Of a stretch of 64,000 bases of DNA, positions 42,368-63,412 are shown in pieces. The stretch covers positions 37,572,001 through 37,636,000 of the forward strand of contig OX597839.1 in the NCBI GenBank assembly GCA_951406725.2. Direction: 5' to 3'. The position numbers and the translations under genes are program-made. Below the pieces are notes generated by a model, which was given only the letters and a program-made list of their open reading frames with translations, ran no database searches and had not been told where the DNA came from. Every line of letters begins with the position of its first letter. The stretch's first letter is position 1. The DNA comes from Octopus vulgaris (taxonomy: Eukaryota).

Positions 42368-43135
42368 TTCCTGCTGTCTTCAGACCATCTATGAGAAATG
42401 ATGAAGAACTACCACCTCCACCCGTCGTGCACTCTATGACCACTCGCTACACAGAAGACAACTTCCCCCCACCGCCACTCTTTCCTCCCCCTCCTCCGAC
42501 CACCTCCGACCTCACCCACACCACTTACTACTCTAACCGCAACGATGCCTACAACCTTCCCCCTCCCCCTCCGCCAATCGAGCATGCAACCTCTGGCACA
42601 GCCATGGCCACCCCCACTGTGTACAATCCATCCCTGCCCCCACCCTCTAGCTATCCATCAGGACAGCCACCCTACAGCAGTGTAAGCAGCAGCTACAACT
42701 CGCGGTCGGTTTCCGTGACGGCGCCGTCTTCGGCTGCGTCTTCCACCCCATCGCACTACTTGAACCAGCCGAACTACATGAACCATAGTGATCTTCCCCC
42801 TCCACCCCCGGGTCCCTCCCAGGCCGTGCCGAGCTACTCCAATGTCCACAGCAGTGCTAGTGCTGTGGTTGGCGGTGGGATTGGTGTCGGTACTCCGCAG
42901 CAGTCGGTCAGCTACAAAGCACCCGTTCAAGCGTTGCCACAGCAGCACAAATACCCGGGGTATTCGGATCCCGTCAACCCTAGCCCTCTCGCTGCTTCCA
43001 GTCCAGCAGGCAGCTACACCACGAACTCCCTACCTCGGTCCGATGGTAGGAAGGTGGGCAAAGAAGCAGAAGTAGATGCCTTGACTAGTTTGTTGATGCA
43101 AAACATTGAGTCTGCTGGGGATCCTGACTTCTTTG
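42368..43135 (+). CDS. LPP: Proline-rich exon of zyxin/LPP-family protein with EVH1-type FPPPP/LPPPP motifs and pre-LIM helix KEAEVDALTSLLMQNIESAGDPDFFG
   Basis: Acceptor gttcctctgtttcAG (42366-67) and donor G|GTAAGT (43136), both phase 1; open frame; end resembles the LPP pre-LIM segment (EDELEHLTKKML...DEYFG). Confidence 0.93.
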
Positions 43136-47154: not shown

Positions 47155-47256
47155 GAATGTGTTCCAAATGTGGCCATCGTGTGGTGGGTCCGAGCAATGG
47201 CTGTACAGCAATGGATCAAGTTTTTCATATTGACTGCTTTATCTGTGACAGCTGTG
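47155..47256 (+). CDS. LPP: LIM1 exon: GMCSKCGHRVVGPSNGCTAMDQVFHIDCFICDSC
   Basis: Long poly-T tract plus ttAG (47153-54); donor G|GTAAGT (47257); C-x2-C...H-x2-C-x2-C-x2-C LIM pattern; GCTAMDQVFH matches vertebrate LPP LIM1 as I recall it. Confidence 0.95.
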
Positions 47257-52273: not shown

Positions 52274-52760
52274 TCTCACTCTTTCTCACGAACCCCTAGG
52301 AACCTTTTATAGAACCCTAGGGTTTTGGGGAACCCCGGTTGAGAAATGCTGGGTTAGGGTATTGCAGTCATCATTATAAGATTGTGATTTCAATTCCTGG
52401 ACTGGGCAATGCATTGTATTCTTGAGAAAATCATCTCACTCTTTCTCACGGAACCCCTAGGAACCCTTTGCAGAACCCTAAGGTTTTGGGGAACCCCGGT
52501 TGAGACATGCTGGGTTAGGGTATTGCAGTCATCATTATAAGATTGTGATTTCAATTCCTGGACTGGGCGATGGATTGTATTCTTGAGAAAATCATCTCAC
52601 TCTTTCTCACGGAACCCTTAGGAACCCTTTGCAGAACCCTAGGGTTTTGGGGAACCCCAGTTGAGAAATGCTGGGTTAGGGTATTGCAGTCATCATTATG
52701 AGATTGTGGTTTCAATTCCTGGACTGGGCGATTGATGCATTGTATTCTTGAGAAAATCAC
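52274..52760. repeat. Tandem repeat, ~160-bp unit x3
   Basis: Units start tctcactctttctcacg at 52274, 52434, 52595. Confidence 0.9.
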
Positions 52761-56505: not shown

Positions 56506-56710
56506 GGCAGACAGACAGAGAGGGAGAGCAAGAGGGAAGGACGCACATACAGAGAAAAAGACACAGAAAATATGTATGTGACCGAGAGAGAGACTGGTGA
56601 CTACTATGAGACTAGTTGCTGAGACCACAACGACAAGTGGTAACAGTGTGAAACAGAAAGTTAGTGCTCGCAGTTTACCACATCTAATGCTGGCCTTCCT
56701 TGTTGGTATC

Positions 56711-57330
56711 GACTAGTAACTGGTAACAGTTTTGTAAAACCTAGGCCGTTTTTTGTGAGGTATTGACTAGAAATTGGCTAGTTTAGTAGTACCGGTCTCC
56801 TAAGTAATGACAGTTTTCTGGGTGGTACCAACTAGTTACTGATAGTTTAGTAAAACCGAGGCCGTTTTTTGTGAGGTATTGACTAGTATTAGATAGTTTA
56901 GTAGAACCGGTCTCCTAAGTAATGACAGTTTTCTGGGTAGTACCACTAGTTACTGATAGTTTAGTAAATCCTAGGCCGTTTTTTGTGAGGTATTAACTAG
57001 TATTAGCTAGTTTAGTAGTACTGGTCTCCTAAGTAATGACAGTTTTCTGGGTGGTACCAACTAGTTACTGATAGTTTAGCAAATCCAGGGCCTTTTTTGC
57101 GCAGTGTTAAGTAACATCTAATTTACAAAATCCTGGTCCTTTACTGTGTGCTGTAGACTAGTAACTGAAAGTTTTAGCAGATTCTGGGCCATTTTTGTGA
57201 GGTGTATCATTTAGCTAAGTAAAACTAGGTCCCTAACAGGTAGTTGTCATGTAGGGCCTGGGTCTTTCTGGATGGTATAAACAAGTAAGAGATAATTTAA
57301 TAGATCTCGGGATATTTTTTTGAGGGGTGT
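56711..57330. repeat. Tandem repeat, ~115-bp unit, about 3.5 conserved plus 2 degenerate copies
   Basis: aggccgttttttgtgaggtatt recurs at 56743, 56859, 56973, with degenerate copies at ~57088, ~57187, ~57310. Confidence 0.9.
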
Positions 57331-58222
57331 TAGGGCTTGTATCAAGTAGTTTGGTTAGTTCCTGCGTCCTTCTTGTTAGATGGAACCGTGTGTGATAGAC
57401 AGCCCTCCCCCTCTCTCCCTTACCGTTTGTGTGTCTGGTTGGGTGGTCGGCATGGAGATTTGCTTTTATACTGCGATTCCAACACGTTGGGAATACCCCT
57501 TCCTTGTGTGACCATCACACCTCGCTTTTGAGTCTACATTATGTCAACTTGGAGACATGTAGTAGTTGGCGACTGAAACAGAGGATAACTACTACTACTG
57601 CTACTACTACTACTACTACTACTACTACTGGATTATACCACAATCACCATCACCATTATCAACAACATCAGCAATCTTTGCAACTATTATGGCAAAAATA
57701 CTTTTAACAACAACAATGTTTATGGTAAATGCATCACAGTAACAACAACAACAACAAACAACAACAAACATCAGCAATGACCATCGCAACAACACCAACA
57801 ATAACACTGACCGCATCGACAGTAACAATGATATCACCACCACAACAACAGCAACAAGCATAGCACACTACTGTTACAACCCAATCTCCTCCCCGACACC
57901 ACCACCACCACCACCACCGCCACCACAACAACCACAACAACTACCATAACACTAACAGCACCAATAATAATAATAATAAGAACAACAACAACAACAATAA
58001 TAATAATAATAATACCAACAACAATAATAATAACAACAACAACAAGAATAATAATAATAATAATAATAATAACAACAACAACAACAGCAACAATAACAAC
58101 AACAACAGCAACAATATCATTACAACTACTACCACTAAAATAGCACCACCGTTTGAACCTCACCTCCTCCCCTTTTACCTCCATCATTACTGCTAACAAC
58201 AACAGCAGCAACAACAGCAAGT

Positions 58223-61200
58223 ATGTTTACTGATTCTGGTACCAGATCTAACTCTAAGATGGTACAAAGTTCTGCCATGATGAACGTAATCAACATGGAA
58301 TCTCTCTCTGACTGGAAGTACAGCTACATCTTCTGTTACCAGGATTCTGCCAGCAAGACGCTCATTCTCCATGCCATCGAGTCCAAGAAGCCGCAACATG
58401 TCGCGACGGTCCTCCACGATGTCCTTCATCTTGTTGGTTTCCCCAACGTCGTCAGGAGCGAGAGCGGCCACGTGTTCGTGTCACGAGTCCTCCAGGAAAT
58501 GCGGATTTTGTGGGGCGCCTGCAGTTCGGGCCTGAATTCTACACAACAGGTCGACATGTCGAATTACTCCGGGGAAGAAGAAGCGGAGGAGGAGAATGAG
58601 GCGGAGGATGAAGATAATGGCAGCCTGATAAATAATGTGTATGTCCTGGAAAGCCTCAAAAACTGGATGATACAGCACAACAGCAGCAACTGGAGCCTGG
58701 GTGTGAAGCTGGTTCAATTTCAAGAGAACTCCATCAATCAAAACGCTAACATTGACTTTGTGTCTTCGGATAAACTGCTCACGGAACTTGCAAGTATTTA
58801 TATGCCATTTGAATGTTTAAAGAGTTTGAAAAGCAATGACGAACTAAACCAAATCCTTCACAGGACCCTTACGACAGGGCTTGAAGATTTACTATCACAA
58901 TTAGGTGTAACCCCTAAAAGGACCGTTTGCTGCAGATCGTCAACAACAAAACCCCAGGGAAAATGTACAAACGGGCATGTTGCTGATAAAAAATTCCAGT
59001 TTGAAAGAAGGGGTGTGTTGCGCTCAGATTTAGGGACCTCTACCTGCTGTAACATAAAACCTTGTGTTACAAATGAAGTATCCTCAGTAAAAGACATATC
59101 CGAGTCCAGACTCGATGGTTCTGTCCTTGGTAGGTCCATAATCCAAGACAGTGACACCAGCTCAAGGACAGCTGCAGTGACAAATGATTCTCCTGCTCAG
59201 GATTTATCATCCAATTCCATACATTCTCCTCATTCTGATTTCCACACAACCGGAATTAAATCTCAATTGGATCGTTCTGCAGCAAGTGGGGCACTTGAAA
59301 AGCCAAGTGCTGTAATTGTAGATGTTTCTTCTAATTGCCCAGATAGGCATCTACATCTTCATCATCACCATCACCATCATCATCTTCATCGATATTCTCG
59401 ACCATCTTCTCCTCGTTCCCAGCAGCATGAGCGTTTCTGGGAAGCACTTAGCAATGATGGGGAATACCAATGTGACCTTTCTCGTCACTCTGATAAATGT
59501 ACGCAGGATCTCAGTTGCAAATCGAAATGTGTGCGGGACATCATTCGGTTTATGGAGTTGCAGTCTTGCCAGTCCAGTAAAAACAAAATATCCTCGACCG
59601 CTGATAAAAAGTTGCAAAATCAATCCCTGGATGATTCAGCGAATTCTTCCCTTGATGGAGACAGTGGTCCCAGTCAAATGCTCAGCCAGTCTATATCAGA
59701 AACACCAGTTCAAGTGACCACCCTTCCTGCTTTAAATATGAGCAACAGCCCTGTCTGTGTTGCCGACACGGGTGACAGGACTCCGGATCAGGATTGGGTT
59801 TCTTGTGGTCAAATAGCCACTCATTCCTGTTTGGACATCGGTCAACCTTCACTTGATAACAGAATCGATGATGAAACACCTGTCCAGACTGCATTGCACG
59901 TGCAGCAAATATCGGCACCAACTGATGTGTGGAATGAAGATGAAAATAATTTTGCAAAGAACTTTACAGAAGGTGCATTGAACCGTGAAGAGACAGCATT
60001 GAACTGTGCAGAGAATACATCGTCACAGACGTCGAGAAATGATCTTACATCACCATCGGTTAACATAGGGGAACGGTGCTTTGTTTACAGCACCAAGAGG
60101 GGTTCTGCGAAGGCTTTTGTTTCTTTAAGTCGGAGTTCAAGTTTAACTGAGATTAATACACCTATGACCTGCATATCAGTGCCCCCTTGTAGCATTCCTG
60201 AAATACAGAATCCTGTTGATTTGTCCACTGTCGAAAATTCTGATAAATTCCAGGATTCACAGTGCTTGCTTAAAGTTCAGGACATTGTAAAAAAACTGGA
60301 AATATCCAACGCGAAATGTTCAGACTGTGAGGATTTTAAAAAGAACAGGAAAATTCCTGAAAGAGCTAGCAACATCGGAAATATCATAAAACAGCTGGAA
60401 TCATTTGCAGGACCTCATCCAAAGTGGAGAACTTTGAGAATAATTGGTCAAAGCTGCGAGGACTTGAATAATCTTGGTAAGGACTGTGATGTGAGCAGTT
60501 GTGCTTCTGATGGGTCCATCGTGTCGGGGAATACTTCGTTGTCAGGCGATGATGAAACTGAGGAAGTGGAGTTACCAAACGATCTACTTGTGCAGAAGCT
60601 GGACACTGGTCTTGTCTTAAGCATTGATGACCAGTCCTCACCTGACCACAGGTGTTTAACGCGGAAGGATTCTAATCAGTTGATTGAGGCCTCAGATAAT
60701 TATGACACTGATGATGTTGGTCATGGAAATGATGATGATGATGACAGGTGTCATGATTATCATAAAGTTAATTACAGCAATGATGTTGATGATGATGATG
60801 ATCATATCTGCAGTGATGGTGCCCCTGATAAAGTGAAATACGTGGATGAGAAAAAGAACATCAAAGAACGTCACTTTTCCAGTTGTTCCACTTTAAAGCT
60901 TTCTAATTCAGAAAACTTTATCGACTCATTATCCAATAATGACACTGACGATGATGATGTTGATGATGATGATGATGATGATGATGTTGATGATGATGCT
61001 TTTACTTATACGGAAGAACTGAACCAACGCATAAACAAAGTCATTTACCGTCTCAAGTCAGAATCCGATATGCCTGACTACCTGAAGGATGAAGATTTCG
61101 GAGAATGTTGCCAAGACAGCAGTATTGGCGGCATGTCTCAGAACACAACTGCCGATGAGATATCAATGTCACAGGAGGCAGGTTTCCATGGAAACAGGTC

Positions 61201-61996
61201 AACCGACGCGGACTGTGCGGACCCTGTAACTCCTACCAATGCTGACCCGCCTCAGTGTTTCCCAAGCAAACTCCGCACCTCTCCTTCTTGCTACAATCTC
61301 AACTCCTACATCTCGACGAGTTATTTCTGTGAGAGCAGCCAAGACGGTGCCTATGTCAAACCTAACATCTGTGAAAGTTTCAATGAGGTTTCAAACCCAG
61401 TCCCGTCCGATGGAGATCACGTATCTTTAAATCACATCCACAACAACCCTAACTCTGTCAATTTGAGTACCCCCTCTAACAGACTCGAACCCCTTACACA
61501 ACAACGGTCCAGCACATGCACCACAGTCATCCACACCCCATCTTGGTACGTCCCTTCTTATGAAAACCCTAAACAAATCACAAATCCAAATGACAATCAC
61601 AGTGAGATGCCCTTCCTCACGGACATTGAGCAGAAAATAAAGCAAGCCCTACAGGAACTCGAGTCTGTGGATTTCTGCCGTCACCTGACATTCGACAGTC
61701 TCTGTCCCACATCAGTATTGTTCAATGAGGGTGGTGGGGCAAAGCCGGAATGCATTTCATTTCCTCAGTGCAAGCAGTGCGAGTGCGATGGTGCATCACA
61801 TTGCCAGAAGTGCAACTATGCGCTGCCACATCAGCTGCAGGATCACTGCTACTTGTACTGCCAGTTGTGCAGTCTCTTCAACAAACGCCTCGTTGCAACT
61901 CAGGAACAATTTCATTATCAGGTTTATGAGAAAAGTAAGGAATTTTCTTTTTATGTCAATTTTTTTTACACGTTTCTCTTGTTTTTGTATTATTAA
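58223..61996 (+). CDS. 1257-aa ORF: degenerate KRBA2/SCAND3-like integrase core (aa ~10-215), long Ser/Asp-rich region, C-terminal Cys/His finger; exon probably ends at donor 61934/61935
   Basis: 3.77 kb without a stop in AT-rich DNA; motifs YIFCYQD..SK.LILH.IESK....VA..L.DV...VGFP.VVRSESG..FV..VL.EM..LW and NW....NSSNWSLGV..VQF align by eye to KRBA2-type integrases; His and Asp repeat tracts stay in frame. Confidence 0.88.
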   Translation: MFTDSGTRSNSKMVQSSAMMNVINMESLSDWKYSYIFCYQDSASKTLILHAIESKKPQHVATVLHDVLHLVGFPNVVRSESGHVFVSRVLQEMRILWGACSSGLNSTQQVDMSNYSGEEEAEEENEAEDEDNGSLINNVYVLESLKNWMIQHNSSNWSLGVKLVQFQENSINQNANIDFVSSDKLLTELASIYMPFECLKSLKSNDELNQILHRTLTTGLEDLLSQLGVTPKRTVCCRSSTTKPQGKCTNGHVADKKFQFERRGVLRSDLGTSTCCNIKPCVTNEVSSVKDISESRLDGSVLGRSIIQDSDTSSRTAAVTNDSPAQDLSSNSIHSPHSDFHTTGIKSQLDRSAASGALEKPSAVIVDVSSNCPDRHLHLHHHHHHHHLHRYSRPSSPRSQQHERFWEALSNDGEYQCDLSRHSDKCTQDLSCKSKCVRDIIRFMELQSCQSSKNKISSTADKKLQNQSLDDSANSSLDGDSGPSQMLSQSISETPVQVTTLPALNMSNSPVCVADTGDRTPDQDWVSCGQIATHSCLDIGQPSLDNRIDDETPVQTALHVQQISAPTDVWNEDENNFAKNFTEGALNREETALNCAENTSSQTSRNDLTSPSVNIGERCFVYSTKRGSAKAFVSLSRSSSLTEINTPMTCISVPPCSIPEIQNPVDLSTVENSDKFQDSQCLLKVQDIVKKLEISNAKCSDCEDFKKNRKIPERASNIGNIIKQLESFAGPHPKWRTLRIIGQSCEDLNNLGKDCDVSSCASDGSIVSGNTSLSGDDETEEVELPNDLLVQKLDTGLVLSIDDQSSPDHRCLTRKDSNQLIEASDNYDTDDVGHGNDDDDDRCHDYHKVNYSNDVDDDDDHICSDGAPDKVKYVDEKKNIKERHFSSCSTLKLSNSENFIDSLSNNDTDDDDVDDDDDDDDVDDDAFTYTEELNQRINKVIYRLKSESDMPDYLKDEDFGECCQDSSIGGMSQNTTADEISMSQEAGFHGNRSTDADCADPVTPTNADPPQCFPSKLRTSPSCYNLNSYISTSYFCESSQDGAYVKPNICESFNEVSNPVPSDGDHVSLNHIHNNPNSVNLSTPSNRLEPLTQQRSSTCTTVIHTPSWYVPSYENPKQITNPNDNHSEMPFLTDIEQKIKQALQELESVDFCRHLTFDSLCPTSVLFNEGGGAKPECISFPQCKQCECDGASHCQKCNYALPHQLQDHCYLYCQLCSLFNKRLVATQEQFHYQVYEKSKEFSFYVNFFYTFLLFLYY

Positions 61997-62215
61997 CCCT
62001 TTAGTGTTCAGATTATTCAATCAAACATAATGCTTATTGATTCCCATTGATTTGAATTAATCATGCATTATCTCATATCTTCAAGATCTTAATGATGTAA
62101 TTACTTAATGTAGAATAACATTGTAGGGTAGGTGTGAGGGCCTGGATCTGGTCAGTTTGAACATAAAACAGATTAACTATTTTGGCCGGATATGGCCGGT
62201 TTAAATACTAAAGGG
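61997..62215. mobile_element. piggyBac-like MITE
   Basis: TTAA|CCCTTTAG...CTAAAGGG|TTAA; related pieces at ~30928 and ~42005-42095. Confidence 0.85.
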
Positions 62216-63060
62216 TTAAGGGGAGGAGGTATGATGTTATCGTCTTTGCTTTCTCTCTTTTTATATGTATCATCATCATCATCATCATCGTTTGATGTCT
62301 GCTTTCCATGCTAGCATGGGTTGGACGATTTTGACTGAGGGCTGGCGAACCAGATGGCTGCACCAGGCCCCAATCTTGATCTGGCAGAGCTTCTACAGCT
62401 GGATGCCCTTCCAACCACTTCAAGAGTGTAGTGGGTGCTTTTTACCTGCCACCGGCACGGGGCCAGTCAGGTGGTACTGGCAACGACCTCGCTCAATTCT
62501 TTTTACACATGCCACTGACACAGGTGCCAGTAAGGTGACGCTGGTAACGATCACACTCGAATGGTGCCTTTTACGTGCCACTGGCACAGAAGCTGGTATA
62601 TATGTATATGTCGTATGTCTGGCTCAAACAGTTTCATTTGTATCATTATCTCCACATCTTCTCACTTGGATTCCCCTTACAGTGATTCTTTACCCCATAG
62701 ACTTAGTTCCCACTGCAGATTTTGGATTGTAAGTTCAAATCATTTCAGCGCTATTAAGTGTTTTCTATATCGAGCATCTCTGGATTTCATCTGTTGACTC
62801 TGTATGTGTGTATGTATGTATGTGTGTATATATATATAAATATATATAAATAGATGAGTGTATTTTTCCCTTGTTAACAATTAACATGGAAAAAATAGAT
62901 AAATAGTTACCAGGGTAGCAAAAAATCACACAAGTAAAGAGGTTGTAGCTCCTTGTTTTTAAAGGTAGAAACTTTGGGTTTACGTGGAATAATGTCAGTG
63001 AAATCTTCAAAACATGTGTCGTAAGTAAAAGTATTTGAATTATACCTGCGTTAAACTCCA

Positions 63061-63107
<47 letters not shown>

Positions 63108-63412
63108 AGAGAGAGAAAGGTTATGAGAGGTAATGGTGTGAATAAGACTCAAAGTTGTCAGGTAATGCTGAGTAAGTGCTATGGACAGACCATAGTTAAG
63201 CTCCAGGTTCGGTGATTATGTGAATAAGAAGTCCAACATAGGTCATATATCAGCATGTGTATATATATAAAAAAAATTTTTTTCAGAATGAGCTAAAAAA
63301 CCAAGGCTGTGAAGATTTTAGAACATTTATAAATATTTATAAATGTTCTAAAATCTTCACAGCCCTGGTTTTTTTTTTTATCTCATTCTGAAAAAAAATT
63401 TTCATATATATA

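Follow-up and report, generated by a model that had tools for sequence, protein, structure and literature searches.

The stretch of Octopus vulgaris DNA described here, referred to as the window, comprises 64,000 nucleotides (G000:C26:37572001-37636000) of a 2.8-Gb genome (G000) and carries exons of LPP, a gene of the zyxin family (Table 1). A long open reading frame lies on the same strand within the LPP intron that separates the LIM1a exon from the LIM1b exon (the latter starting at G000:C26:37643868). It extends from stop to stop over 58157-61996 (+) and contains 1279 codons, or 1257 when counted from the ATG at 58223; at the local base composition, the probability of such a stop-free length arising by chance is about 1e-32. 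A preliminary description of the window had reported this 1257-codon frame together with a set of integrase motifs, and the frame and all the motifs quoted were found again. The same intron contains a 161-bp tandem repeat (52274-52759, 3 copies, 93% matches). Nested inverted repeats at 63262-63412 of the window form a near-perfect hairpin of ~150 bp (40-nt arms 98%, outer 39-nt arms 90%) that resembles a small non-autonomous element.

A search of the genome with aa 1-226 of the frame returned its own locus as the sole high-identity match, along with 3 further matches at 23-25% identity. The transposase-derived exon is thus present in one copy, as the preliminary description had anticipated. 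Its closest named protein is Octopus sinensis LOC115224746 (97% identity over aa 1-226), which is labelled 'uncharacterized protein' in RefSeq. LIM is the only Pfam family assigned to this protein, and its transposon origin is therefore invisible to routine annotation.

Table 1. Features of the LPP intron and of the open reading frame (window coordinates; aa, residues counted from the ATG at 58223)
Feature	Position	Strand	Basis or remark
LPP proline-rich/pre-LIM exon	42368..43135	+	5' boundary approximate
LPP LIM1a exon, phase 1-1	47155..47256	+	bypassed in the fusion model
Single-copy upstream stretch with 114-bp x3.2 minisatellite (56728-57099)	56620..57580	.	may hold a promoter or 5' UTR
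Pyrimidine tract and candidate phase-1 acceptors (AG ending 58205, 58208, 58217)	58158..58217	+	
Coding part of the probable LPP alternative exon, transposase-derived	58223..61934	+	1237 codons + 1 base; O. sinensis models P0001/P0002
GINGER2/KRBA2/SCAND3-type integrase catalytic core and subsequent helices, aa ~15-226, without H2C2 finger	58265..58900	+	
First catalytic position, Asp>Asn, N21	58283..58285	+	alignment
Second catalytic position, Asp>Glu, E80; adjoining Asn>Ser (S81)	58460..58462	+	alignment
Diverged loop containing an acidic insert (aa 104-134), with L135/I136 as third catalytic position	58532..58630	+	alignment, model
Ser/Asp/Asn-rich low-complexity region with His and Asp runs, aa 236-1130, predicted disordered	58928..61612	+	composition
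SFM-like motif 1, aa 437-445, common to P0004 at similar distance from the domain	59531..59557	+	relaxed match only
SFM-like motif 2, aa 685-693	60275..60301	+	relaxed match only
SFM-like motif 3, aa 718-726	60374..60400	+	relaxed match only
Cys/His cluster, aa 1177-1216	61751..61870	+	without significant match
Phase-1 splice donor GTAAGG	61935..61940	+	partner acceptor G000:C26:37643867/37643868 (LPP LIM1b exon, beyond the window)

A GINGER2-derived integrase core

The Pfam family rve matched the frame at E 0.021 only. A phmmer search with the domain collected 310 relatives at E<=0.001, the best 150 of which supplied the homologue counts given here, and a language-model search of the domain returned rve clusters with a score of 0.94. 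When 24 proteins (23 phmmer matches and P0002) were scanned with Pfam, rve was present in 14 and Integrase_H2C2 in 14; P0083 (phmmer E 3e-8) combines SCAN, integrase, Znf_SCAND3 and hAT, which is the architecture of SCAND3. The family name GINGER2 rests on this link and on PMC3575427, which in its accessible part describes SCAND3 (ZNF452) and KRBA2 as mammalian chimeric genes derived from GINGER2; the tree discussed below holds no named GINGER2 reference element. The earlier label 'Ginger/GingerRoot-related' is thereby narrowed to GINGER2 (SCAND3/KRBA2 clade), and its GingerRoot half is dropped, as GingerRoot forms a separate superfamily according to the portion of PMC6839031 at hand.

The catalytic positions were read from an alignment of 146 homologous domains, taken from 140 of the 149 best-listed phmmer matches (of 310). 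Asp occupies the first column in 105 of the 146 domains, and the second likewise in 105 of 146; the octopus residues are N21 and E80, the latter followed by S81 in place of Asn. The third position falls on L135 if counted from the conserved Trp148 or on I136 if counted from Gly133, non-acidic in both countings, an exact alignment being prevented by an acidic insert of ~20 residues. An LPxExL..EL motif follows at aa 192-212. The loss of three acidic positions and the retention of this motif, both reported in the preliminary description, are thus borne out. DDE loss is not unique to the octopus domain among GINGER2-type cores: in the 119 complete homologous domains (27 incomplete ones were set aside), three catalytic residues are kept in 69, two in 25, one in 18 and none in 7. 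P0005, P0006 and P0040 each contain three tandem, catalytically dead GINGER2 cores and form a clade of their own (SH-aLRT 99); P0005 starts with an N-terminal THAP domain, the N-terminus of P0006 is similar, and these proteins represent another domestication. In P0078 and P0145, a GINGER2-type core with a changed second Asp is joined to C2H2 zinc-finger arrays, and both are likely further host-transposase fusions.

A model of the domain built from an 86-row alignment reached a pLDDT of 80.6, with values of 51-62 over most of the loop (aa 104-134) and a helix beginning at aa 135. The best match in a VIA structure comparison was the foamy-virus integrase 4bac (Z 14.0, rmsd 3.6 over 133 residues), the top 18 rows being retroviral or Ty3 integrases throughout, and the best Foldseek match was the PFV integrase (E 2e-4). 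The rve/RNase H fold predicted beforehand was therefore recovered, in a match that is not independent of the sequence evidence because the model alignment consists of transposases and leans to their fold. A single-sequence search of solved structures yielded chance matches only. The first 226 codons of the frame derive from a GINGER2 transposase and lack all three catalytic residues.

GINGER2/Tdd transposons are characterised, in the available text of PMC2836005, by TIRs of 50-180 bp, a 4-bp TSD, several copies, the DDE triad and an H2C2 finger. The octopus frame begins only 20 codons ahead of the first catalytic position, and a search of the intron with 11 transposases for an H2C2 finger upstream of the core gave no match under E 0.1. 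No TIRs were found around the exon, in agreement with the preliminary description, since the inverted matches inspected there were simple repeats, short-range hairpins or interspersed repeats with 76-87% identity. Judged by the features given in that part of PMC2836005, the exon is not a GINGER2 transposon any more: it belongs to the same DDE core lineage, of which broken copies persist in the octopus genome, and it differs in being single-copy and in having neither TIRs nor H2C2 nor DDE. Five GINGER2/KRBA2-like copies are located at C2:56.15 Mb, C3:140.11 Mb, C8:89.23 Mb, C18:18.78 Mb and C20:28.85 Mb. All five are broken by stops or frame changes with their DDE motifs still readable, and transposases of this kind share only 23-28% identity with the octopus domain. 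There are many other genomic matches at 21-30% identity, and the four inspected (L029-L032) are Gypsy-type integrases. A scan of JGI metagenomes gave 63 pattern matches, 0 of them confirmed.

Selection and age of the exon

Run X6, one of the sequencing runs compared with the window and representing a close relative, differs from it within aa 95-319 by 10 nonsynonymous and 15 synonymous changes, a count of 25 drawn from 40 listed of 173 difference rows. The resulting pN/pS is 0.18, rising to 0.26-0.29 when transition bias is allowed for (P 2e-5 to 3e-3). For the greater part of the exon, subtraction of protein differences from nucleotide differences gives a rough estimate of ~0.23. The listed amino-acid differences of X6 agree with O. 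sinensis, and the upstream non-coding DNA differs by ~5% (14/275). Between O. sinensis and the exon there are 43 substitutions in 1237 aa (8/235, 34/894 and 1/107 by region), and the indels between the two species are frame-keeping only. The exon is under purifying selection, with the ratio well under 1 that had been anticipated; together with the dead triad and the single copy, this supports the earlier proposal that a transposase was domesticated as a host gene.

A more distant relative is P0004, an ENA protein from a 305-kb contig that is 55-56% identical over 88 aa and finds matches in the octopus genome at the exon locus alone. In a quick IQ-TREE search of 149 rows, in which the row of P0004 was 41% filled, it groups with the octopus domain as its sister (SH-aLRT 100) on a long stem of 1.9; the 149-row tree does not resolve the place of the octopus clade among the GINGER2 lineages. 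The sequence of P0004 suggests a much older gene. Orthologue searches yielded one cluster at lengths 691-2200 and P0004 alone under 691, and protein searches up to 2457 aa gave no model from any third named species, which leaves O. sinensis as the single named orthologue. A search for orthologues of the C-terminal part retrieved 15 other LIM proteins that aligned in the LIM part only.

Probable connection to the LIM exons of LPP

The donor (GAGAAAA/GTAAGG at 61934/61935) lies ~1000 codons beyond the recognisable integrase core and is in phase 1, the same as the donor of the LIM1a exon. The RefSeq isoforms X1 and X2 of O. sinensis (P0001/P0002) both join the frame at this point to LIM1b, LIM2 and LIM3. 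When the octopus exon is joined in silico to LIM1b-LIM2-LIM3, the frame is open to the LPP stop and encodes 1403 aa, the last 166 of which are identical to P0002. The canonical LPP exons also join into an open frame with three LIMs, so that the parent isoform is still encodable. P0001 and P0002 differ by 72 residues between two GAT (Asp) repeats (window 60720-61000), and isoform X2 of O. sinensis may be an alignment or template-switch artefact instead of a real intron.

Four of the 24 listed sequencing runs (X1, X5, X6 and X18) were compared with 56600-62600. X1, X5 and X6 represent three studies and two organism codes, their status as RNA being the tool's guess. In these three of the four runs, contigs match through 61935 and then continue with 29 non-matching letters; in the large run X18, a contig continues unbroken across 61076-62017. 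The first base of the LIM1b acceptor exon is G, which accounts for the match to 61935 and speaks against a poly(A) tail; an end 30 letters beyond the donor is what would be expected where a 31-mer graph branches at an acceptor shared by two exons. Splicing from the donor at 61934 into the LIM1b exon, in addition to the canonical LPP isoform, is thus very probable; the contig break suggests that the canonical isoform is expressed alongside the fusion, and we infer the junction letters in O. vulgaris. The in-phase donor, the O. sinensis models and the contig ends therefore make the frame most likely an alternative exon of LPP, not an independent gene.

The preliminary description had placed a gene of its own in the LPP intron, and of this only the location stands. 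For an independent single-exon host gene ending at the stop 61996, it can be said that the frame continues for 20 codons beyond the donor and that an unspliced minor form is possible, but in all three runs that are probably RNA the contigs depart from the genome at the donor, both RefSeq isoforms of O. sinensis are spliced, and the extra 20 codons are a T-rich, intron-like stretch. Such a gene is very improbable, and the 20 codons beyond the donor (61935-61996) most likely represent read-through into the intron. Still less credible is a decayed transposon or low-complexity frame that is open by chance and was joined to LPP through annotation error. This reading would fit the lack of a family match over the greater part of the frame and of a model from a third named species; it is largely refuted by the openness of the frame, the pN/pS well under 1, the exclusively frame-keeping indels, the conserved sister P0004 and the spliced contigs.

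At the 5' end, the exon fairly probably opens the protein from its own start, a private 5' end being favoured because of the RefSeq start and 504 unbroken letters. These letters belong to record 2 of run X1, in which they precede 58224 without matching the window, and X1 has no depth at 57605-58207; the letters and the depth gap could also mean an upstream exon. LPP upstream exons would then splice into the acceptors at 58205-58217 and the proline-rich part would be kept, in a protein of 1704 residues (exon inserted within LIM1) or 1670 residues (LIM1a replaced). A pyrimidine tract with three AGs in the right phase is available and both joins are open frames, yet an A/C-rich run separates the tract from the AGs, both O. 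sinensis models begin at the same Met, and a contig entering from shared LPP exons would be expected to stop after ~30 letters, like those at the 3' end, instead of continuing for 504. An internal exon is therefore unlikely; a repeat mask at 57885-58223 conceals any 5' join. The minisatellite 1.1 kb 5' of the exon is single-copy (3.2 units, 91% matches) and is covered by contigs of 4/4 runs.

The predicted fusion protein and its relation to known systems

The predicted protein would consist of the dead integrase core, a disordered region of ~900 residues that carries three SFM-like motifs, and then 2.5 LIM domains; because the exon would open the protein, the isoform would drop the proline-rich half of LPP, and LIM1 would lose its first six zinc ligands. 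A Pfam scan of aa 236-1130 detected no family. The short F-actin-binding motif (SFM) has been published, in the accessible portion of PMC13364712, as VxxLxxxFE with Phe/Tyr at P8. Strict or paper-allowed variants gave 0 matches in the frame, and a relaxed pattern with Leu/Met at P8, chosen post hoc once the sequence had been seen, gave 3 matches vs 0.18 expected (4/5000 shuffles). The similarity of the P0004 tail is modest (15/1000 shuffles). The Cys cluster near the end of the exon may be the transposase's own C-terminal finger: it is similar by eye to the SCAND3-like finger, an impression matched in score by 103/1000 shuffles, and a C-terminal SCAND3-like zinc finger occurs in 15/149 phmmer matches (best-listed of 310). 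Pfam gave no match on the cluster, and an Atlas search with the end of the exon reached 0.77 at best. Duplication of the LIM1a exon was ruled out as the source of the cluster (940/953 shuffles score equally).

In a model of the C-terminal part, LIM2 and LIM3 fold, and the exon end has no confident fold except for one helix. In the predicted fusion LIM2 and LIM3 remain whole and LIM1 contributes only its last zinc pair, which makes fewer than three tandem LIMs. Strain-site binding requires tandem LIMs and two bind weakly, and parallel clustering of single LIM1 domains gave no strain-site binding, according to the available part of bioRxiv 10.1101/2020.03.06.980649; the latter result makes it less likely that a dimeric core would act through avidity alone. 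Elsewhere in the octopus genome, roughly a dozen divergent actin-like genes are clustered in tandem at G000:C27:12.58-12.88 Mb, and L035:1498-2628 (-) encodes an intact intronless divergent actin of 376 aa that is 75-79% identical to conventional actins.

We consider it likely that the single-copy exon serves LPP as an alternative first coding exon leading into LIM1b-LIM2-LIM3, yielding a fusion isoform of 1403 residues for which its parts predict the role of a non-catalytic actin-associated scaffold. Integrase cores dimerise, and the dead core could act as a folded dimerisation or interaction module. The three short helices of the disordered arm would bind F-actin without need for strain, and LIM2-LIM3 would retain binding of LPP partners with weak strain sensing only. 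This division of labour in an actin/adhesion scaffold is put forward tentatively, at slightly less than even confidence. Given weak strain sensing and strain-free actin binding, the LIM module of LPP would change its role in this isoform, no longer a repair adaptor triggered by strain but a constitutive actin/adhesion scaffold. A more far-reaching version, which is doubtful, assumes an old capture in the cephalopod lineage of a whole GINGER2 gene, from the core to the C-terminal finger, as alternative first exon of LPP; catalysis and DNA binding would have been lost, a disordered arm of 900 residues would have grown in which three Lifeact-like F-actin helices evolved independently, and the product would be a dimeric actin cross-linker with LIM2-LIM3. 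If true, a transposase has turned into a cytoskeletal protein and a mechanosensor has been rewired in soft-bodied, muscular-hydrostat tissue.

The fusion might instead work in the nucleus, where the dead core would bind nucleic acid or poison GINGER2-type transposases and the LIM pair would recruit transcriptional partners, in line with the majority of host-transposase fusions of vertebrates. LPP shuttles to the nucleus, and GINGER2-like copies occur at 5 loci of the genome. Transcriptional regulators make up most of the fusions described in the accessible text of bioRxiv 10.1101/2020.05.07.082677, which is also in favour of this view. However, the H2C2 finger is gone and an acidic run replaces the loop before helix 4, which disfavours DNA binding, and the five GINGER2-like copies are all broken and only 23-28% identical, so that there is no evident active target. 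A nuclear role is accordingly unlikely, and the actin-associated LPP isoform is the reading retained in the following comparison.

Like SCAND3 and KRBA2, the octopus gene is a single-copy host gene in which a GINGER2 integrase core is fused to a host domain. Unlike them, it results from an independent capture, its host part consists of the C-terminal LIMs of a cytoskeletal protein in place of an N-terminal SCAN or KRAB, and the exon has no H2C2 finger, three changed catalytic positions and a disordered spacer of ~900 residues. P0005 (THAP), P0006 and P0040 are comparable in that GINGER2 cores with lost DDE lie inside long proteins, but they have no LIM domains and the octopus domain falls in a separate clade. 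With LPP, zyxin and TRIP6, the fusion has the LIM1b, LIM2 and LIM3 exons of LPP in common, and it is predicted to differ from them in having two whole LIMs and neither a proline-rich half nor a complete LIM1. Host-transposase fusions such as KRABINER, SETMAR and CSB-PGBD3 have been described for tetrapods, mostly as transposase DNA-binding domains joined to regulatory domains (bioRxiv 10.1101/2020.05.07.082677, as far as the text is available). The octopus locus resembles these in the transposon in a host intron, the capture by alternative splicing, the parent isoform being kept and selection on the fusion; in contrast to them, it keeps a catalytic core without a finger, upstream of the host exons, and LIM1 is split in half. 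Under the definition made for tetrapods in that part of the text, the exon most likely gives rise to such a fusion isoform.

No literature on this gene was found in a search that mainly covered sources other than subscription journals, and the available text of a survey of transposon-derived factors that includes Octopus does not mention Ginger (PMC10027918). New here is a probable octopus fusion that places a dead catalytic core, not a DNA-binding domain, on the conserved adhesion and strain-sensing LIM region. It offers a testable case of a lineage-specific isoform of a cytoskeletal gene that was probably made from a transposon.
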